Shown here one piece after another: positions 3,048-18,934 of a stretch of DNA of 64,000 nucleotides. The notes beneath the pieces are model-generated. The model did no database searches. It had not been told where the DNA came from and saw only the letters and a list, made by a program, of their open reading frames with translations. A program made the position numbers and the translations under genes. The DNA comes from Candidatus Moraniibacteriota bacterium (GTDB lineage Bacteria; Patescibacteriota; Minisyncoccia; Moranbacterales; UBA2206), in NCBI GenBank assembly GCA_049303795.1, contig JBAQNM010000005.1:121597-185596 (forward strand), read 5' to 3'. Each line of letters begins with the position of its first letter. Positions within the stretch are counted from its first letter, which is position 1.

Positions 3048-3224
3048 ATTTTTTATATTCTAAATTTTAAACTATTCCAAAAACTTAAATAAATTAATAT
3101 TATCCTTAAGACAACTTTATTGTATTATACAGCAACAAATAATGCAAGAGTGCGCAAAATAAAAAAGCGCCAAATATAATCAAGACGCTTCACTAACTTC
3201 CAGGATCCTTGTTTTTTGTAATTG

Positions 3225-3298
3225 TGGGTCGTGGAGGATTCGAACCTCCGACCGTTTGCTTAAAAGGCAACTGCTCTACCAGGCTGAGCTAACGACCC
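3225..3298 (-). tRNA. tRNA-Lys (anticodon UUU)
   Basis: The reverse complement reads GGGTCGTTAGCTCAGCCTGGTAGAGCAGTTGCCTTTTAAGCAACGGTCGGAGGTTCGAATCCTCCACGACCCA. This folds as a cloverleaf with a 7-bp acceptor stem, GTTCGAATC T-loop and anticodon loop CTTTTAA (TTT). CCA is not encoded. Confidence 0.85.
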
Positions 3299-11124: not shown

Positions 11125-11342
11125 AAATCAATATCCACCATTTTCCTTTGCGTGCTTTTACCGCCAACGATCGAAATCTCGCTTTTAGCAACACCAAAAT
11201 ACTCCGCCAGTAATTTAACCAGCGCCTCATTAGCTTTGCCATCAACCGGTGGCGCGGTTAATTTCACTTTATATTCCCCTTCACTAATTTTTTCGACACT
11301 GTTTTTCGAAGCTCTGGGAATAACTTTAATGTAAACTCTCAT
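11121..11342 (-). CDS. DUF167/YggU family protein
   Basis: 73-aa ORF MRVYIKVIPRASKN...VDGKANEALVKLLAEYFGV matches the UPF0235 (YggU) family. Confidence 0.7.
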   Translation of the reverse strand: MRVYIKVIPRASKNSVEKISEGEYKVKLTAPPVDGKANEALVKLLAEYFGVAKSEISIVGGKSTQRKMVDIDL

Positions 11343-12180
11343 TAGTTTTTAAGAAAAAAATATTTTTCAATTTTAAAAGAAGACTCGCCAGCATCAGCCC
11401 CAGAAGAAGAATATTCATTCCGATAAAAATTTCTCGTACGATGCCAGCCTTAAGATCCGTTCCAAGATAATAAGCGTGAAAAAACGCAACGCCATAAAGT
11501 GCGATGTTCAAAAAATGCGTAACACGCCAAACGCGGTAAGATATGTGCTTGCGAAAATAAGAAGTAAGGATAATCGCAATCATCGAATACATTCCCAGCA
11601 CGCCCAATGTTATCATTTCCGGATTATAAGTGGAAGCGAATGGCACAAGAACATCTTTGAGGCTGAAATCAAGATATTCATCCGTCAAAAGAACCAGTCC
11701 GTGAATGAGGACAAAAATCAATGCCTGAACAGAAATCCAACCATGAAAATTAAGCGAATCAATTGGTTTGAAAATCTTTTTTAAACCCGGAAAGCGAATA
11801 GCAATCCCGAAAAAAATCGCAAGATACAAAAGCAGAAAAGCGATAAGCCCTCCAGCTCTTGTAAGATACCAGGACCATTTTTCCGGCTCATCTTCGAAAT
11901 ATTCCCGCACGGTTATATTTTGCACAGCGCTTGGATTAATACTATCAAGAGGATTAGTATTGCCAAGCACCTCCACCCCATCCAAAAAACCATCGCTATC
12001 TGTGTCGGGCAGGTTGGGATCAGTTTTATAAATTTGCTTTTCTCCTTCGTCAGTCAGGCCGTCTAGGTCATTATCAAGCACCAGATTGTTTCCGTAATCC
12101 ACTTTCTGCTCCTCTGCTAAAACCAAACTGAAATGTGATCCCAAAAAGATTAGCGTAATAATAAAAAGTATTTTTTTCAT
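11326..12180 (-). CDS. exported Ca-binding (TSP3-like) domain fused to a ferric-reductase-like bis-heme transmembrane domain
   Basis: Signal peptide, DxDxDG-type Asp-rich repeats (DLDGLTDEGE, DTDSDGFLDG), then six predicted TM helices. His pairs are spaced 14 and 13 residues apart within helices (HGWISVQALIFVLIHG and HFLNIALYGVAFFHA), as in NOX/FRE/MsrQ heme b ligands. Confidence 0.55.
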   Translation of the reverse strand: MKKILFIITLIFLGSHFSLVLAEEQKVDYGNNLVLDNDLDGLTDEGEKQIYKTDPNLPDTDSDGFLDGVEVLGNTNPLDSINPSAVQNITVREYFEDEPEKWSWYLTRAGGLIAFLLLYLAIFFGIAIRFPGLKKIFKPIDSLNFHGWISVQALIFVLIHGLVLLTDEYLDFSLKDVLVPFASTYNPEMITLGVLGMYSMIAIILTSYFRKHISYRVWRVTHFLNIALYGVAFFHAYYLGTDLKAGIVREIFIGMNILLLGLMLASLLLKLKNIFFLKTNESLH

Positions 12181-12184
12181 ATTT

Positions 12185-13111
12185 TTAATAAATATTATTT
12201 TTCATTCCCTCGGAAATCACAGCATTCCCTCGATAATCTAAAAAAATGCTCTTGACTTTATTTTCATTAGAAAATTTCATACCTGCCTCCTTGCCTTTAA
12301 GAAACAGCATCTTAGCCCAAAAATCCGCTTCAGTGACAGTCTCAGCGACAACAGTAACAGATTGCAAGGCAAAGGAAAAATTTTCTGGATTTTTCGGATC
12401 AATCAAATGATGGAACTTTTTTTCACCACTTTCCCATTTACGCTTTCCAATACCCGAAGTCGCGACCGCTTCATTTTTTAAGCTGATAAGCATCCTATCC
12501 TCTATAATTCCCTCGACATCAATCTTCCAGGTTTCTTCTTTTTGATCTTTTCCGAAAGCAAACATGTCCCCACCGGAATCAATAAGAAAATTTTCAAATC
12601 CAGCTTGCCGTAGCATTTCCACTGCCCTATCTGTGATATAGCCCTTAGCAATTCCCGCAAAATCCATCCGCTGATTGAAACAAATTTCTTCGCCTCGAAT
12701 TATTAAATCTTTTTCCAAATCACTCACGCTAATTTTGGGAAAAGATTTTCCACTCGAAGCTACAAACCTATTTTGTTTAAAATCTTTCTCATATCCAATC
12801 CGTTCTAGAACTTCAATAATTCTTGGATCAAACAGCCCCTCACTTAATTTATAATAATATAAAATTTCTTTCGCTAAAGATAAAAAATGCGTCGATGGTT
12901 TTAAAAATTTTCCTAAATTATCATTAAACTGATTCAATTCACTATCCCGATCAAAACGACTGAACCTTTTCTCAAATACAACATAAAAATTTTTAAGTGT
13001 CTCTGAATCTTTTTCGGCTTTATCTTTTAAACTTTCCGCGCAAACTATCTGAAAATAAATATCTGTCCCAAGCGCTTTAAATTCTTTTTCCACTGACGCC
13101 TTTTTTCCCAT
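12185..13111 (-). CDS. apbE: FAD:protein FMN transferase (ApbE family)
   Basis: DFAGIAKGYITDRAVEMLRQAGF...IDSGGDM matches the ApbE signature. Start chosen at MGKKAS (13111), which removes the overlap with the upstream ORF. No obvious signal peptide. Confidence 0.75.
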   Translation of the reverse strand: MGKKASVEKEFKALGTDIYFQIVCAESLKDKAEKDSETLKNFYVVFEKRFSRFDRDSELNQFNDNLGKFLKPSTHFLSLAKEILYYYKLSEGLFDPRIIEVLERIGYEKDFKQNRFVASSGKSFPKISVSDLEKDLIIRGEEICFNQRMDFAGIAKGYITDRAVEMLRQAGFENFLIDSGGDMFAFGKDQKEETWKIDVEGIIEDRMLISLKNEAVATSGIGKRKWESGEKKFHHLIDPKNPENFSFALQSVTVVAETVTEADFWAKMLFLKGKEAGMKFSNENKVKSIFLDYRGNAVISEGMKNNIY

Positions 13112-13112
13112 C

Positions 13113-13439
13113 TTATTTCTTCTCAAATTTATCAACAATACCATTCTTATCATCATCCACGACAATATATATTTCCGGAATAGTAGGATGCGGATCTTTT
13201 TGATCTAAAAGGCCATCGCCATCACTATCTTTTTCAATGATTGTTTTTGTACTAACATCAGTTGTAACTTTTGTTTCAGTCTTTGCTGAGCTACTACTTG
13301 AACCGTCACGATCTTCTGAAGAATACTCTTCTTCGTCATCCTCATCCTCGTCATCATCGGCCACAGCAAAATTTAATGAAACCGCAAGACTAAATACTAG
13401 AAGTATGACTAATAAAAAAGCTTTGAATTTTTTTCTCAT
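13113..13439 (-). CDS. small secreted acidic protein with TSP3-like calcium-binding motif
   Basis: Signal peptide, DDDEDEDDEEE run, Ser run, and DSDGDGLLDQKD motif. Confidence 0.4.
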   Translation of the reverse strand: MRKKFKAFLLVILLVFSLAVSLNFAVADDDEDEDDEEEYSSEDRDGSSSSSAKTETKVTTDVSTKTIIEKDSDGDGLLDQKDPHPTIPEIYIVVDDDKNGIVDKFEKK

Positions 13440-13450
13440 AATTATTTAAT

Positions 13451-13768
13451 TTATGATTTTTTTGTCGTACGACTACTCTTACTTGTCGATGAGCTAGGTT
13501 TGGTCACTGCAGTATTAGTTGTAGTTGTAATCTGTTGAGTCTTCAAGGTTTGCGGAGTACTACTCAATTCGCGCAATTTACTTTCCCGATCAGCAGAAAT
13601 AATACTCTGCGCGCTTAACATATTTGAATCAATTGGACTAATCGTTGAATCCGTTTCAGTTTTAATCGCAACGTCTTTCTGATCCTGATTTTTAATTATT
13701 AAAACAGCAATAACCATTAAAAGTATATTGATCACAAAAACTAGAATTTTATTAAGATGTTTTTGCAT
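13451..13768 (-). CDS. small membrane-anchored Ser/Thr-rich protein, hypothetical
   Basis: 105-aa ORF with an N-terminal TM helix followed by a low-complexity S/T-rich tail. Confidence 0.35.
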   Translation of the reverse strand: MQKHLNKILVFVINILLMVIAVLIIKNQDQKDVAIKTETDSTISPIDSNMLSAQSIISADRESKLRELSSTPQTLKTQQITTTTNTAVTKPSSSTSKSSRTTKKS

Positions 13769-13836: not shown

Positions 13837-14541
13837 CTAGCGTCTAATTCCCATCTTCCCAAAATTTGTCTCAATTTGGCCTTTTATTTTTTCCAAATCA
13901 ATCTTTTTTCCTTTCGTCTTCTTTTTTAAATTATTATCAAGAATGACAGCTTCGCGATATTCCTGCAAATAATATGCATCTGCGCCATTAAGCCATTTGG
14001 CAATTTCCAAAAAATCAAGTTCTTCATGCAAGCCAGGAACGACAGTTGTGCGAAATTCATAAGCCACGCGACTATTGCGAATTAAATCAACGCTTAGTTT
14101 AATACGCTCTATGTCAACTTTTATGCCAACTGTTTCACTGTATTTGTTTAATTGATTTTTAATGTCCATCGCTACAAAGTCCAAAAGCTTCAAATCCAGT
14201 AATTTTTTAAGCACATCCGGTCTCGCACCATTTGTATCCAGCTTAACCAAAAATCCCAAAGCTTTAATTTTTTTGATAAATTCAATTAAGTCCGGTTGCA
14301 GAGTTGGCTCGCCTCCTGTGATACAAACTCCCTCGAGTTTGCCTTTGCGTTTTTTTAGAAATTCGAAAAAATCTTTTTCAGTTTTATCAGCCATTCCGGA
14401 TAAAATCTTTCCACCACCCAAAACTAACTCGGGATTATGACAAAATGGACAGCGAAAATTACAACCAGCTGTAAAAACTGTTGTCGCTATATAGCCCGGA
14501 AAATCGATTAGAGTTAGTCTTTGTTGACCAGAGATAATCAT
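13837..14541 (-). CDS. nrdG: anaerobic ribonucleoside-triphosphate reductase activating protein (radical SAM)
   Basis: N-terminal CNFRCPFCHN (CxxxCxxC) radical-SAM cluster motif typical of NrdG, immediately downstream of nrdD. Confidence 0.85.
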   Translation of the reverse strand: MIISGQQRLTLIDFPGYIATTVFTAGCNFRCPFCHNPELVLGGGKILSGMADKTEKDFFEFLKKRKGKLEGVCITGGEPTLQPDLIEFIKKIKALGFLVKLDTNGARPDVLKKLLDLKLLDFVAMDIKNQLNKYSETVGIKVDIERIKLSVDLIRNSRVAYEFRTTVVPGLHEELDFLEIAKWLNGADAYYLQEYREAVILDNNLKKKTKGKKIDLEKIKGQIETNFGKMGIRR

Positions 14542-14606
14542 AAACTTTTAAAATAAGCCATCCTAACTTTTTGGAAAAGTAGGATGGCTTACTATCTTTT
14601 TTTAAT

Positions 14607-14867
14607 TTAACAACAAGCTGGACTTTCTACCTGAAATTCTTTTCTGTCAGCATATTCTGCTTGCTTTCCATTATTCCATTGCGCTACCGGCCTAATATAA
14701 CCAACGACGCGCGAATAGACTTCTGTTTTTTGAAAATTTCGTAAAACCGAATCCGCTTCGTGACAGCTTTTGCATTTATGATACTCGTTTTCGCCAACCT
14801 TATAAGCCACAAACTCTTCGTTCTCTTGAAGCTCGCGAGAACAATCATGACAAATATATTTTTCCAT
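14607..14867 (-). CDS. free-standing zinc-ribbon plus glycyl-radical domain protein, paralogue of the NrdD C-terminus (putative NrdD spare-part / autonomous glycyl radical cofactor)
   Basis: 86-aa ORF with CHDC...CKSC zinc ribbon and C-terminal KTEVYSRVVGYIRPVAQWNNGKQAEYADRKEFQV. The last 32 residues of nrdD in this window read KTEVYSRVVGYIRPVEQWNNGKKAEFCDRKEFKV. Many synonymous nucleotide differences indicate an old, selected duplicate. Confidence 0.6.
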   Translation of the reverse strand: MEKYICHDCSRELQENEEFVAYKVGENEYHKCKSCHEADSVLRNFQKTEVYSRVVGYIRPVAQWNNGKQAEYADRKEFQVESPACC

Positions 14868-14945
14868 ATTTTTTTATTTTGCAAGATGTAATAATTATTG
14901 CATAAAGCAAAATGCTTTTAATTTTTTATTTTATTTTAAATTTTA

Positions 14946-17168
14946 TTATTTTTTCACCTTGAATTCCTTGCGATCACAAAACTCAGCCTTCTTGCCATTA
15001 TTCCATTGTTCTACTGGTCTGATATAGCCCACTACGCGTGAGTAGACTTCCGTTTTTTGCTCCATCACACACTTCGGACAAAACAGATGTTCTCCTTCCA
15101 AATAACCGTGTACCGGACAAATACTGAAAGTTGGCGTAAGTGTGAAATAGGGCAAGGAATAATTTTCTGCAATCTTGCGCACTAGTTTTTTAGTTGTTTC
15201 AATATCCCAAATTCGCTCACCCAAAAATCCATGTAGCACTGTTCCTCCGGTATACTTCGTTTGCAAACCGTCCTGCAATTCCAATGCTTCAAAAATATCC
15301 TCCGTAAATTGTACCGGCAGTTGTGAAGAATTAGTGTAGTATGGCTCAGAATTTTCATTTTTCACTTTTTCGTTATTGGCAAAAATAATTTCCGGATATT
15401 TTTTCTGATCAATTCGCGCCAAACGATAGGAAGTGCCTTCTGCTGGAGTTGCTTCCAAGTTATACAAATTACCGGTTTCTTTTTGATAACCAATAATTCT
15501 TTCTCGCATATGCACCAAGATTTCTTCAGCTAATTTTTGTCCCGCAGGTGTTGTGATATCTTTTCCAATTAGATTAAGCAACGCCTCATTCATTCCGACA
15601 AGACCAATAGTTGAAAAGTGATTAGCCCAATATTGTCCACGACGCAATTTAATTGGTGCTAAATAAAATTTGGTGTAAGGATAGAGTCCACCATCAGTCA
15701 ATTTTTCCACCATCGTTCGTTTCGTCTCCAAACTTTCCTTCGCGAGATCCATCAGATGATTTAGATCCTTAAGAAATTCTTTCTTGTTTTTTGCTGTATG
15801 TCCCAAGCGAGGCAAGTTGATTGTTACCACGCCAACTGAGCCAGTCAAAGGATTAGCACCAAACAAACCTCCTCCGCGCTTATGCAGTTCTCGATTATCC
15901 AAACGCAAACGACAACACATACTGCGCGCATCATCCGGATCCATATCAGAATTAACAAAATTAGCAAAATAAGGAATACCATATTTAGCAGTCATTTCCC
16001 AAATTGCATCAAAGCGCTTATCCTTCCAATCAAAATCCTTGCTAATATTGTAGGTTGGGATTGGGAAAGTGAAAATTCGTCCATTAGCATCACCCTCTGT
16101 CATCACTTCAGCAAAGGCCCGATTGATCATATTCATTTCATCTTGAAACTGTCCATATTTTTCAATTTGTGGCAAGCCACCAAAAATCACAGCCTCATCA
16201 GCTAAATTTTTCGGACAAGTAATATCCATTGTGATATTGGAAAAAGGAGTTTGGAATCCAACACGTGTGGAAACATTCATATTGAAAACGTAAGACTGAA
16301 TTTCTTGCTTCACCTCTTCATAGGTCAATTTATCATAACGCACAAACGGAGCGAGCAATGTATCGAAATTAGAAAAAGCTTGCGCGCCGGCTACTTCACC
16401 TTGAGTAGTGTAGGTGAAATTTACCATTTGCCCTAAAATTGATCCGAGATGTTTCGCCGGTTTACAAGCAACCTTACCTGGAACGCCAGTGAATCCTCTT
16501 CGCAGAAGATCTTGAAGATCCCATCCACAACAATACGCTGCCAAAAGTTGCAAATCATGAATATGAAAATCTCCACCTTCATGCGCTTCACGAATCTCTT
16601 TAGTATAGACACGATTCATCCAATACTTAGAACTAACGATTGAGGAAATATAATTATTCAAACCTTGCAAGGAATATGCCATATTAGCATTCTCTTTCAC
16701 CTTCCAGTCAATTTCTTGAATATATTTATCCACTAAATTTACTGCTTCATCTAATGATTGTTCTGCTTCACGATTTTTTCTGTGTTGCTCGCGATAAAGG
16801 ATATAGGCCTTGGCTGTTTCTTCAAAATCCAAAATCATCAAAACCCTTTCCACTAAATCTTGAATTTCTTCAATCTCTGGGACATAACCTTCCTTGTGCT
16901 TTCGGCCTAATAATTTAATTACTTTTTCAGTAACTTTTTTCGCCTCATCAACTCCGCCTTCTTTAGTTGAAGACAATGCCTTGGCAATCCCTCGCGTGAT
17001 TTTATTTTGATCAAAATTTGCCAACTTTCCATCTCGCTTGATGACTTTTTTAATTTTAATTCCTTCTTTTGAGCTAGCAATGTTTTTCTTGCTGACCACT
17101 TTTAAAGCTACTGCCTTTTTCGGTGCTACCACCTTTTTTCCCCCAATGTTTTTCTTTTTTGTTTTCAT
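14946..17168 (-). CDS. nrdD: anaerobic ribonucleoside-triphosphate reductase (class III RNR) with N-terminal ATP-cone
   Basis: 740 aa with ATP-cone (VIKRDGKLANFDQNKI), large glycyl-radical enzyme barrel, C-terminal Zn site and RVVGY glycyl radical motif. Flanked by nrdR and nrdG. Confidence 0.9.
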   Translation of the reverse strand: MKTKKKNIGGKKVVAPKKAVALKVVSKKNIASSKEGIKIKKVIKRDGKLANFDQNKITRGIAKALSSTKEGGVDEAKKVTEKVIKLLGRKHKEGYVPEIEEIQDLVERVLMILDFEETAKAYILYREQHRKNREAEQSLDEAVNLVDKYIQEIDWKVKENANMAYSLQGLNNYISSIVSSKYWMNRVYTKEIREAHEGGDFHIHDLQLLAAYCCGWDLQDLLRRGFTGVPGKVACKPAKHLGSILGQMVNFTYTTQGEVAGAQAFSNFDTLLAPFVRYDKLTYEEVKQEIQSYVFNMNVSTRVGFQTPFSNITMDITCPKNLADEAVIFGGLPQIEKYGQFQDEMNMINRAFAEVMTEGDANGRIFTFPIPTYNISKDFDWKDKRFDAIWEMTAKYGIPYFANFVNSDMDPDDARSMCCRLRLDNRELHKRGGGLFGANPLTGSVGVVTINLPRLGHTAKNKKEFLKDLNHLMDLAKESLETKRTMVEKLTDGGLYPYTKFYLAPIKLRRGQYWANHFSTIGLVGMNEALLNLIGKDITTPAGQKLAEEILVHMRERIIGYQKETGNLYNLEATPAEGTSYRLARIDQKKYPEIIFANNEKVKNENSEPYYTNSSQLPVQFTEDIFEALELQDGLQTKYTGGTVLHGFLGERIWDIETTKKLVRKIAENYSLPYFTLTPTFSICPVHGYLEGEHLFCPKCVMEQKTEVYSRVVGYIRPVEQWNNGKKAEFCDRKEFKVKK

Positions 17169-17209: not shown

Positions 17210-17659
17210 TTATTTATCGAACGTGTCCAACTCTTTTTTGAAACTTTCGATACTGCCAAATGACTTATAGACACTAGCAAATCTTACATAGGCCACTTCA
17301 TCCAATTCGCGTAGTTTCTTAAGAATGATTTTTCCAATATCTCTTGAAGTTATTTCTGGTTTTTCTTTTGTTCGAATTTCATATTCAATCTCCCCAATAA
17401 ACTGCGCGATTTTTTCTTCCGTTACCGGTCTTTTTTCCAAGGCCTTGCGCACACCTGTTTCAATTTTGGATTTATCATAATCGACCTTTATCCCGCTTTT
17501 CTTGATCACACTAAGGCGCAAGAGCTCTATTTCTTCATAGGTGCTAAAACGTGAGATGCATTTAAGACATTCACGACGCCTTCTGGTGATTTTCCCTTCG
17601 TTGGTTTCTCGCGAATCAACGACTTTAGTTTCGGGATTACTACAAAATGGACAATTCAT
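17210..17659 (-). CDS. nrdR: transcriptional repressor NrdR (zinc ribbon plus ATP-cone)
   Basis: MNCPFCSNPETKVVDSRE...RRRECLKC zinc ribbon and ATP-cone, 149 aa. Confidence 0.9.
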   Translation of the reverse strand: MNCPFCSNPETKVVDSRETNEGKITRRRRECLKCISRFSTYEEIELLRLSVIKKSGIKVDYDKSKIETGVRKALEKRPVTEEKIAQFIGEIEYEIRTKEKPEITSRDIGKIILKKLRELDEVAYVRFASVYKSFGSIESFKKELDTFDK

Positions 17660-17687
17660 AATATTTTAGTTTTTATACTACATATAG

Positions 17688-17739
17688 TGTAGCTAATTAG
17701 AATTATACCACAAGCAAAATTATTGGCAAGTAGCTCATT
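17688..17739 (-). promoter_or_regulatory. candidate nrdR-nrdD promoter (TTGCCA - 16 nt - TATAAT, minus strand) with adjacent palindromic NrdR-box-like operator
   Basis: The minus strand reads TTGCCAataattttgcttgtggTATAATtctaattagCTACACTATATGTAGtataaa. The palindrome CTACAnnnnnTGTAG sits just downstream of the -10, about 30 nt upstream of the nrdR ATG. Confidence 0.4.
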
Positions 17740-17857: not shown

Positions 17858-18934
17858 TTACTTTGCTAATTCCTTTTCGATTAGTGATTTAAATTGATCA
17901 GAAGTAATCGCTCCACTTTGCACTTGATTGTTGATGAAAACACTTGGAGTTCCTGAAATTGCGAAATTATTAGCCTCATCAACATCTGCATTGATTTTAT
18001 CTTGATATTTCTTACTGTCCAAACATTGATTAAACTGATCTTGCTTCAAACCCAGATTTTTAGCATATCCTTTAAATTTAGCCACATCATTCTTATTTGA
18101 CCAACCAACTTGATCAGAATAAAGTTTATCAGCATATTCCCAAAACTTATCTTGTTCTAAAGCACAACTAGCAGCTAGGGCAGCGTCATTAGCTTGAGCA
18201 TGAGTGTCGAGTGGTAAAAATTTATAATCAAAATAAATATCATTACTGTCTTTATAATTTTTCATTGCGTCACGCAATACCGTGTGGAAAAGCTTGCAAT
18301 AAGGACACTGAAAATCAGAGAAAACAATCACTTTTACCTTAGCATCTTTGTTTGATCCAAAAATAGCATCATTATCACTGATTTTTGGCAATTCGACATA
18401 TTTTCCAACTGGAATTCCAATGTCTTGTGTGCGCAATATAAACTGACTATCTTTTTCTTCGAAAAGCACGTTAGCCTGAGCATAAAAATCTGTATTTTTA
18501 ATTTGTGAATCGAAAACAAAAGAAGGTAGGGTTTTTATATTAAAAGCTTGGATCAATTTTTTGCCTTCGTCGGAATTATAATCAACCTTAGTTGTTGCAA
18601 TTGTTGGCAATATCCTCCTCATCCAAACCAAAATCTCATCCACATCACATTCTTCACAACTTTCATCAGTTATAACTTTTGCACCGACTGCTGGCTCTCC
18701 ATATGCCACCCAAGTTTTCCCATTAGCTTCAAAAATATCAGACTGATTTAATTTTTTAGCAGAAAAACCATCTTTTCTTATTAACTGAGACAAGTCAATA
18801 AAAAGACTGCCCAAAAGCATGCCGGACAATAAAATGATAACGGAAATTAAATTCTTTATTCTATTATCATTATTCTTATCATTATTCTTATTCTTCATTG
18901 CATCATCCTCCCCTGTTTTAATATCTTCTTCCAT
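17858..18934 (-). CDS. membrane-anchored DsbA-like thiol:disulfide oxidoreductase (thioredoxin fold, CPYC)
   Basis: N-terminal TM anchor and FSDFQCPYCKLFH active-site motif of the DsbA/BdbD family. Confidence 0.75.
   Translation of the reverse strand: MEEDIKTGEDDAMKNKNNDKNNDNRIKNLISVIILLSGMLLGSLFIDLSQLIRKDGFSAKKLNQSDIFEANGKTWVAYGEPAVGAKVITDESCEECDVDEILVWMRRILPTIATTKVDYNSDEGKKLIQAFNIKTLPSFVFDSQIKNTDFYAQANVLFEEKDSQFILRTQDIGIPVGKYVELPKISDNDAIFGSNKDAKVKVIVFSDFQCPYCKLFHTVLRDAMKNYKDSNDIYFDYKFLPLDTHAQANDAALAASCALEQDKFWEYADKLYSDQVGWSNKNDVAKFKGYAKNLGLKQDQFNQCLDSKKYQDKINADVDEANNFAISGTPSVFINNQVQSGAITSDQFKSLIEKELAK

Follow-up and report, generated by a model that had tools for sequence, protein, structure and literature searches.

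The nrd operon of the window

The stretch of DNA analysed here, called the window throughout, comprises 64,000 nucleotides from a Candidatus Moraniibacteriota bacterium (assembly GCA_049303795.1, contig JBAQNM010000005.1, positions 121,597 to 185,596) and has a G+C content of 35%. Its minus strand carries an operon for a class III (anaerobic) ribonucleotide reductase (RNR), in the order nrdR, nrdD, an open reading frame (ORF) of 86 amino acids, a hairpin and nrdG. The subject of this study is the product of the small ORF, here termed the mini, which combines a zinc ribbon with a loop like the one that bears the glycyl radical in NrdD. An earlier reading made from the letters of the DNA (the sequence-only reading) had placed an ORF with a four-Cys ribbon and an NrdD-like Gly loop between nrdD and nrdG, and this was confirmed by ORF reading, Pfam and BLASTP.

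The best sigma-70-like promoter of the operon, TTGCCA-16-TATAAT with a TG ahead (17702..17729, minus strand as for all features of the operon), is a consensus match only, at 11 of 12 positions, and this candidate lies just 3′ of a terminator-like hairpin with which the preceding gene ends. Between its −10 element and nrdR the palindrome ACACTATATGTAGTAT (17675..17690) was read from the sequence, and it appears to resemble the published NrdR-box consensus. The gene nrdR (17210..17659) encodes a repressor of 149 residues with a zinc ribbon and an ATP-cone (TIGR00244, 172.9 bits; Pfam Zn_ribbon_NrdR and ATP-cone). It is followed by nrdD (14946..17168), which encodes a complete class III catalytic subunit of 740 residues (NF006126, 1081.8 bits; PF13597 positions 1-562; ATP-cone). 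This NrdD consists of an ATP-cone, a barrel with the motif SMCCRLRLD, a C-x2-H...C-x2-C ribbon and its own Gly loop, and its residues 187-735 align to the T. maritima NrdD structures 4coi/4u3e. The cis loop spans residues 704-739, QKTEVYSRVVGYIRPVEQWNNGKKAEFCDRKEFKVK (14952..15059); the protein runs two residues (KK) past the string quoted in the sequence-only reading.

The mini gene (14607..14867) starts with ATG and encodes, with its stop codon, the 86-residue protein MEKYICHDCSRELQENEEFVAYKVGENEYHKCKSCHEADSVLRNFQKTEVYSRVVGYIRPVAQWNNGKQAEYADRKEFQVESPACC. No obvious Shine-Dalgarno sequence precedes it. Directly 3′ of its stop lies a strong hairpin (14554..14592; minimum free energy −23.4 kcal/mol, z=−6.6) with a U-rich stretch behind it, and then nrdG (13837..14541), encoding a radical-SAM activase of 234 residues (TIGR02495 (NrdG2), 205.6 bits; Radical_SAM and Fer4_12). 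Being inside the nrd operon and upstream of the hairpin, the mini gene is probably co-transcribed with nrdD. The window holds no third Gly loop besides those of NrdD and the mini.

A near-perfect 16-bp palindrome, TGTAATAATTATTGCA (14887..14902), was noticed in the 78 nt that separate nrdD from the mini gene. It was rejected as a second NrdR box, being unlike the box upstream of nrdR and not enriched: with ≤3 mismatches allowed, the window has 3 matches where 1.4 are expected.

The mini and its kinship with the loop of NrdD

The ribbon of the mini has the form C-x2-C-x22-C-x2-C and consists of Cys6-His7-Asp8-Cys9, 22 further residues and Cys32-Lys-Ser-Cys35 (C-H-D-C x22 C-K-x-C, 14763..14852). 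The motif L42-R-N-F precedes the glycyl-radical loop (residues 46-81, 14625..14732), which reads E49-V-Y-S-R-V-V-G56-Y-I-R-P-V-x-Q-W-N-x-G-K-x-x-E-x-x-D-R-K-E-F and contains the presumed radical residue Gly56 (codon 14700-14702). The tail ends in ...P-A-C85-C86, a vicinal Cys pair (14610..14615). Residue numbers refer to the full-length protein; the family alignment and the AlphaFold2 (AF2) model begin at residue 2 and are numbered one lower.

As the sequence-only reading had expected, Pfam NRDD (PF13597) matched the mini (E=2.3e-12), with profile positions 510-562 of 562 only. The Pfam scan at E≤1 otherwise returned three weak unrelated matches, and Gly_radical (PF01228) was absent from it. 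By BLASTP, residues 46-81 of the mini and 704-739 of NrdD are identical at 30 of 36 positions (83%, E=1e-19), a similarity that at the level of sequence is far above chance. The zinc element of NrdD (C-P-V-H, nine residues, C-P-K-C) could not be aligned with the ribbon of the mini, and as far as the alignment goes the mini is a close copy of NrdD in the loop only. The zinc ribbon claimed by the sequence-only reading is thus there, but NrdD has its own ribbon of the C-x2-H...C-x2-C type and that of the mini is not copied from it.

The mini scored 37.4 bits on TIGR02487 (cut-off 326) and 32.3 bits on NF006126 (cut-off 548). It covers just the last 40-55 or so positions of the NrdD models and so lacks the full barrel and the finger-loop Cys of an NrdD, while it has the C-terminal arrangement of one, a zinc site followed by a glycyl-radical loop. 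With scores an order of magnitude below the equivalog cut-offs, the database name 'anaerobic ribonucleoside-triphosphate reductase' is misleading for the mini.

The AF2 model built from the family alignment is confident, with a mean pLDDT (predicted local distance difference test) of 83. In it the two Cys knuckles are surrounded by beta strands, and a beta-hairpin that bears the Gly at its tip is followed by a helix and by a tail modelled with low confidence (mean pLDDT 56).

Selection on the mini and its match to NrdD

The two loops of the window are identical at 81 of 108 DNA positions; of the 30 codons that specify the same residue in both, 17 show synonymous differences. For the loop core of 30 codons, the synonymous divergence (pS) between mini and NrdD was 0.94, which amounts to saturation, and the non-synonymous divergence (pN) 0.084. 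This value of pS led us to reject recent gene conversion, a recent duplication and an assembly duplication in the window. Among orthologues of the mini, pS ranged from 0.73 to 1.18 and pN from 0.17 to 0.27. The sequence-only reading had described an old duplicate under purifying selection, neither an assembly artefact nor a recent pseudogene, and it is borne out by the saturated pS between copies and between orthologues, with pN at 0.08-0.27.

The loop of a mini shares on average 27.4 of 30 residues with the NrdD of its own genome and 24.1 of 30 with the NrdDs of other genomes (permutation p<1e-4). Two related loci, L001 and L057 (surveyed loci carry L numbers), have pairs of mini and NrdD loops with a pS of only 0.12-0.14, which suggests occasional gene conversion between the loops there. 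In the saturated pairs, that of the window included, the match between the two loops must have been kept by selection.

Among 121 homologues the four ribbon Cys and His7 are invariant, as are fourteen loop residues (E49, Y51, S52, R53, V55, G56, Y57, R59, P60, Q63, W64, K68, E71 and R75). The conservation of zinc ligands and Gly, on which the sequence-only reading had staked its claim, thus holds throughout. The radical-Gly motif S-R-V-V-G-Y, of the RVxG[YF] type, was seen in every one of the more diverse minis inspected too. That the mini gene is real and conserved may be regarded as practically certain.

Size and designs of the family

A word-indexed search returned 553 homologous clusters at 90% identity, for the most part from Moranbacteria. 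The best 120 of these were all 80-113 residues long, mostly 86-88, and where the source was named it was a metagenome-assembled genome (MAG) of Moranbacteria, Parcubacteria or Patescibacteria. Their names were "anaerobic ribonucleoside-triphosphate reductase", "oxygen-sensitive ribonucleoside-triphosphate reductase" or "hypothetical". An exhaustive hidden Markov model (HMM) search covering 1.84 billion representative proteins found 556 clusters at 50% identity (E≤1e-10), of which the best 150 were all free-standing proteins of 42-159 residues. Of 149 minis inspected, 141 have a Met start and none has P-T-F-S-I-C, the motif that precedes the ribbon in real NrdDs; the minis are therefore not fragments from contig ends. 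Hundreds of full-length homologues also share the start M-x-K-x-x-C-H-D-C and a common stop region.

Three designs of minis were distinguished: ribbon plus loop, as in the window; a loop preceded by an extended N-terminus and a ribbon with a larger insert (about 95-135 residues); and the loop only (40-60 residues). A search with a loop-only member gave 128 clusters, the best 120 of which were 39-74 residues long and had generic names or none. In no source searched does the family bear its own name or an assigned unrelated function; such an assignment would have closed the question raised by the sequence-only reading. In the minis P0155 and P0245 part of the Gly loop is tandemly duplicated (e.g. 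...EVYSRVVGYLSPVSHWNEGKKEEWEVYSRVVGYLSPVSHWNEGKKEEW...); these may be real double-loop proteins or assembly artefacts.

Three genomic states of related loci

The surveyed loci were picked by similarity, so that the proportions below are not prevalences. The order nrdR-nrdD-mini-nrdG is kept in the relatives L001-L006, L052-L064 and L073, and small C-terminal paralogues with the same synteny were thus found where the sequence-only reading had suggested looking for them. The mini, whose absence from close relatives would have counted against that reading, is missing from two of them, L077 and L088, which keep the cis loop. The mini is accordingly dispensable where NrdD keeps its own loop.

Three states were seen. 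In state (i) a complete NrdD is accompanied by a mini, as in the window, L001, L004, L052-L055, L057, L060, L064, L073 and others. In state (ii) NrdD ends right after its ribbon or with a decayed remnant of the loop (L056, L058, L059, L061, L062, L063 and L149), with ends such as ...CPKCMADQGEKEYLKSDR, ...EQSSTVYLKVVMAD and ...EQKTEVFLKVGEEEL..., and the mini of ribbon and loop, located between nrdD and nrdG, is the sole Gly loop of the operon. In state (iii) an NrdD cut after the ribbon is combined with a loop-only mini of 42-78 residues upstream of nrdG, for example MKKVTRQRCEVYSRVVGYIRPISQWNVGKQAEWGDRKFFKMNSCGC (L090, L094, L109, L117, L118, L120, L121, L128 and L201). Among the MAGs in state (iii) are Saccharibacteria, Dojkabacteria, Bipolaricaulota, Thermotogae-like and others. 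The overlap of the two ORFs in different frames, seen in L090 and L128, may reflect a frameshift or a sequencing error. If a split RNR is one whose chain is incomplete without a second ORF, all the listed loci of states (ii) and (iii) have a split RNR and the window, with its complete NrdD, does not.

The truncated NrdD cores were aligned for all loci of states (ii) and (iii) except L120, L149 and L201. They retain SMCCRLRLD, YC[CV]GW[DS]L, LEA[TS]PxE and YTNS[ST], and judged by these motifs they look like working enzymes that lack the radical loop only. A neighbour-joining tree of NrdD cores (681 columns) had the both-loops, mini-only and cis-only states interleaved inside the Moranbacteria clade, with state (ii) at three separate positions. 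Either loop has been lost but never both, which is the pattern of reciprocal loss expected if the two loops do the same job.

A further observation concerns L018-L020, L046-L048, L117, L119 and L199, where the NrdD frames are 949-1106 residues long and about 1 kb of non-matching sequence breaks up the similarity to NrdD. This looks like an in-frame insertion and might be an intein.

Oxygen-stress neighbourhoods

Of 16 genome loci in which the mini lies away from nrd genes, six had oxidative-stress neighbours according to Pfam. A gene for a Fur-family regulator overlaps the start of the mini gene in L065, L075 and L076, and in L076 a gene for Fe/Mn superoxide dismutase (SOD) lies just 3′ of it. 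Rubrerythrin and desulfoferrodoxin genes are just 3′ of the mini gene in L072, a hemerythrin-HHE protein is encoded nearby in L071 and a rubrerythrin upstream in L078. The Fur-family neighbours matched PerR models best (E 1e-23 to 1e-30), below the curated cut-offs. A reading of these regulators as Zur, and of their neighbourhoods as zinc economy, was rejected because PerR models scored about 40 bits or more above Fur and Zur models, and also because of the co-occurrence with SOD, rubrerythrin and desulfoferrodoxin.

An alignment of the minis located away from nrd genes was used to scan metagenomes, and a tblastn census then gave 54 free-standing minis. Fifteen of these had oxygen-stress neighbours and 11 were beside nrdD or nrdG; the figures are co-occurrence counts and many of the contigs are short. 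The 15 comprised cases with a PerR-like gene upstream (11), SOD (6), desulfoferrodoxin (3), rubrerythrin (2) and hemerythrin (1). The association is specific and fits a part that is needed after exposure to oxygen.

A putative operon of the candidate phyla radiation (CPR), in which a PerR-like gene and the mini gene are often followed by Fe/Mn SOD, was noted in L065, L075, L076, L132, L133, L136, L137, L139, L140, L144, L146, L148, L151 and L153.

Viral homologues

A scan of IMG/VR gave 39 loci, of which nine encode full-length phage NrdDs and 30 (24 distinct sequences) free-standing minis. These viral minis are 40-141 residues long and represent all three designs. Neither nrdD nor nrdG was found near any of the 30 within the available flanks of up to 8 kb on each side; genes for large terminase, portal, endolysin and SbcC-like proteins were among the neighbours. 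A phage that has the loop only must rely on the NrdD and NrdG of its host. On a viral contig of 101 kb (L010), a mini of 86 residues with ribbon and loop, 61% identical to that of the window, is encoded beside a peptide deformylase gene.

With a loop-only query, INPHARED returned only four matches, and the three inspected were two full-length NrdDs and one small protein, the 144-residue AJP62049.1 of ANMV-1 virus, annotated 'anaerobic ribonucleoside triphosphate reductase' (L049, 3686..4120 of KP703175.1). This mini has the extended design and comes from an archaeal (ANME-1) virus, so the family reaches archaeal viruses. In cultured phages it is essentially absent. PHROGs gave weak matches only, to phrog_487 (phage NrdD, C-terminus) and phrog_4132 (function not known), and no dedicated family for minis was found there. 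A precedent for phage-borne minis is Y06I of T4, a phage homologue of GrcA (PMC8683613).

The hairpin ahead of nrdG and neighbouring genes

The hairpin between the mini gene and nrdG was found at the same position in 12 related loci (L001, L004, L052-L060 and L063). It is about 14 bp long, and across 13 loci including the window nine of the 14 pairs show compensatory changes. The conserved motif AAAGATAG precedes it (window stretch 14554..14600), and it has no Rfam match in the window. The element may be a terminator or attenuator before nrdG that sets the ratio of enzyme to activase, or else an element for processing or stability. If it stops most transcripts ahead of nrdG, NrdD and the mini may be made in excess over the activase. 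In L004-L006 (6267..6490) the spacer between mini and nrdG is longer: a called ORF of 50 residues and four tandem copies of ATTATAG come before the conserved hairpin.

On the 3′ side of nrdG the window encodes two small Ser/Asp/Glu-rich proteins without family matches (13113..13439 and 13451..13768), an ApbE flavin transferase (12185..13165) and a ferric-reductase-like membrane protein with a bacterial TSP3 repeat (11326..12180). A similar order follows nrdG in L004-L006, with one small ORF without family, ApbE and Ferric_reduct (L004, 7397..9322). Just 5′ of the nrd operon (17858..18934) lies the gene for a DsbA/Thioredoxin_4 protein of 358 residues with a CPYC motif and an apparently hydrophobic N-terminal segment, and this gene ends in its own terminator-like hairpin. 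Rfam found a single tRNA gene in the 64 kb of the window, tRNA-Lys (anticodon TTT, 3224..3298), and no other family.

Discussion

NrdG acts on NrdD by removing a hydrogen from its C-terminal glycine, and the zinc site of T4 NrdD is required for radical formation. Glycyl radical enzymes (GREs) are irreversibly destroyed by oxygen, and to our knowledge the only remedy known for 25 years has been GrcA/YfiD, which serves pyruvate formate-lyase (PFL). Oxygen cuts the backbone of a GRE at the radical glycine, and YfiD binds the oxygen-cleaved PFL despite the overlapping residual strand (PMC13450708). The glycyl-radical domain has to swing out of the barrel for activation (PMC12662201). Spare parts have been identified for formate-lyases only, with other GREs left undetermined in 2021 (PMC8683613) and in a review of June 2026 (PMC13450708). 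The literature searched on NrdD spare parts, split nrdD and the anaerobic RNR of Moranbacteria and CPR described no free-standing or split NrdD radical loop. The sequence-only reading had held that such a module would be a new system if not already described, and spare parts are on record for PFL only.

The comparative data point to the mini as a substrate of NrdG that is able to fill the loop site of NrdD in trans. It appears likely that the mini bears a glycyl radical and acts in trans together with the core of NrdD. With somewhat less assurance, we regard it as an autonomous, GrcA-like spare (or alternative) glycyl-radical module of class III RNR, while for the window organism in particular the replacement of an oxygen-damaged loop has slightly better than even chances of being its role. 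These views draw on the conservation of the mini and the purifying selection on it, its evolutionary interchange with the cis loop, the link of its relatives to oxidative-stress genes and its carriage by phages.

In the proposed mechanism NrdG, encoded by the next gene, would use S-adenosylmethionine to abstract the C-alpha hydrogen from Gly56 and would do likewise on the equivalent glycine of NrdD. The activated hairpin of the mini would then enter the barrel of NrdD beside the finger-loop cysteine and take the place of the cis loop. Since the NrdD of the window is complete, the turn of the mini would come with the loss of the cis loop, after oxygen cleavage of the chain at the glycyl radical. 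Such a swap would restore the synthesis of deoxyribonucleoside triphosphates (dNTPs) at the cost of 86 residues instead of 740, comparable to what GrcA/YfiD does for PFL. The ribbon of the mini may stabilise the isolated hairpin or aid recognition by NrdG. In states (ii) and (iii), where the cis loop is lost or decayed, the trans loop must be the normal mode of the enzyme.

Several points weigh against a spare part in the window organism. The cis loop of its NrdD is intact and strongly constrained and nothing here requires the mini, and the close relatives L077 and L088 manage with the cis loop. The window mini is located in the nrd operon with no adjoining PerR gene, and PerR-type sites were not searched for. 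By analogy with cleaved PFL, a mini with its own ribbon would have to fit beside the ribbon retained by NrdD and the strand left after cleavage. Structure searches with the mini model found generic zinc ribbons only and no match to NrdD, and the family profile had no match among PDB sequences at E≤0.01. Finally, the Cys-pair tail is not explained by a plain spare part.

The main rival, possible though in our view unlikely, is that the mini is instead the regular or an alternative radical subunit and that the cis loop is a redundant leftover heading for loss, as in the sister lineages. In at least three branches of the Moranbacteria clade and in L149 the cis loop has been lost or degraded and the mini kept, loop-only minis paired with an obligately split NrdD are a common arrangement elsewhere in the CPR, and the window mini is probably expressed together with nrdD. 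A leftover would hardly be under the strong purifying selection seen in the cis loop of the window (pN 0.084, pS 0.94), however, and would not have outlived the mini in L077 and L088; the oxidative-stress neighbourhoods of related minis also suggest conditional use.

The tail brings in a rather improbable alternative, in which the mini delivers reducing equivalents, besides or instead of a radical, with the Cys pair and the ribbon Cys shuttling electrons to a thiol-dependent NrdD. The C-terminal Cys-Cys was not remarked on in the sequence-only reading and turned out to be a conserved feature: two or more Cys after the loop (CC, CxC or CxxC) were counted in 105 of 120 close homologues, whereas full-length NrdDs hardly ever have them in the tail (2 of 48, one of them an ORF read through stop codons). 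The low pLDDT of the tail (56) is consistent with flexibility. The adjacent NrdD is of the MCCR/SCCR type and related to that of T. maritima, and for NrdDs of the T. maritima and N. bacilliformis type (SCCR-like) a protein reductant, not formate, is indicated (PMC4493059). C-terminal Cys pairs carry electrons in class I and II RNRs, and so does the domain of class II NrdJd, whose six C-terminal Cys bind zinc (PMC5704485). Against this, the pair was found in just 12 of the 149 phage and other diverse minis, and it would accordingly be a lineage-specific addition and not the core function. By analogy with these enzymes, a role of the tail in re-reduction of the active site is possible.

That the mini is a regulator or decoy, mimicking the substrate of NrdG or competing for the pocket of NrdD and so lowering activation of the RNR, seems very improbable. 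It does present the same recognition loop as NrdD, the conserved Cys pair could sense the redox state and might be a redox switch, and some phages have the mini alone, which on this account would interfere with the host RNR. Phages usually raise, not lower, the supply of dNTPs, however, and a decoy fails to explain why in some lineages an NrdD core that is otherwise intact has no Gly loop but that of the mini. Nor would a decoy need the invariant loop residues, the Gly among them, or the match to its own NrdD. The shortness of the ORF, the lack of an obvious Shine-Dalgarno sequence and the fragment-like annotation might suggest an artefact of gene calling or a non-functional relic left by partial duplication of nrdD. 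This reading is effectively refuted by hundreds of full-length homologues with a common start and stop region, saturated synonymous sites, a conserved protein and conserved synteny.

As a candidate spare part, the mini is most readily compared with GrcA/YfiD of E. coli and Y06I of T4, which are likewise small, free-standing copies of the C-terminal glycyl-radical domain of a large GRE. Both families have a Gly motif of the RVxG[YF] type, phage-borne versions and, in the case of the mini through relatives located away from nrd genes, a link to oxygen damage (PMC8683613, PMC13450708), and members of both are presumed to be activated by the activase of the parent enzyme, for the mini on account of its adjacency to nrdG and the identity of the loop. 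The parent of the mini is, however, a class III RNR and not PFL. Having no match to the Gly_radical family of Pfam, the mini does not belong to the GrcA family by descent, and the likeness would be one of function only, with an independent origin. The mini further differs from GrcA by its zinc ribbon in place of a disordered N-terminus, by its Cys-pair tail, by being encoded between the genes of enzyme and activase, by serving as the sole radical loop in some lineages and by being known from sequence alone.

With the C-terminal domain of NrdD (T4, 1h7a/1h79; T. maritima, 4coi/4u3e) the mini shares the loop and the succession of zinc element and Gly hairpin, but it has no barrel, its ribbon is C-x2-C-x22-C-x2-C and not C-x2-H-x9-C-x2-C, and it has the extra Cys-Cys tail. 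The class II enzyme NrdJa/NrdJb of P. aeruginosa (PMC4520616) is, like the relatives in states (ii) and (iii), an RNR chain made of two polypeptides, which in those relatives presumably have to assemble. In the window, by contrast, NrdD is unsplit and the mini an extra copy, and the piece that is separated is the radical loop and not a part of the barrel. The Cys-rich domain of NrdJd and the tails of class I and II enzymes (PMC5704485) resemble the mini in having six Cys, four of them possibly binding zinc, and a flexible terminal pair; unlike NrdJd, the mini has its Gly loop between ribbon and pair and is separate from the enzyme, and its role as an electron shuttle is speculative.

More generally, we give about even weight to a picture in which detachable radical cartridges of 40-160 residues and three designs, hitherto overlooked, are widespread in CPR, in anaerobes such as Desulfobacterota and in phages, carry the glycyl radical in trans, repair oxygen-cleaved NrdD, often under control of the PerR type, and form an obligate two-subunit NrdD in several lineages. 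The Cys-pair tail of the Moranbacteria version may help to re-reduce the active site. What would be new here is that the spare-part principle has arisen independently for class III RNR, with an added ribbon, a Cys tail, two-piece forms, PerR-like neighbourhoods and phage carriage.

The mini is a candidate spare part for the enzyme from which strict anaerobes obtain their DNA precursors, in a field that has left spare parts for GREs other than PFL open. Natural controls are on hand in the truncated NrdDs that depend on a mini, the relatives without one, the phage versions and those adjoining a PerR-like gene. If the proposal is true, hundreds of small proteins mis-annotated as "anaerobic ribonucleoside-triphosphate reductase" would be corrected, the study of NrdG would gain a minimal substrate and phages a new class of auxiliary genes. 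Trans-acting radical domains would then have evolved independently at least twice, and the mini would help to account for the survival of ultra-small CPR bacteria, whose dNTP supply may depend on NrdD, during transient exposure to oxygen.

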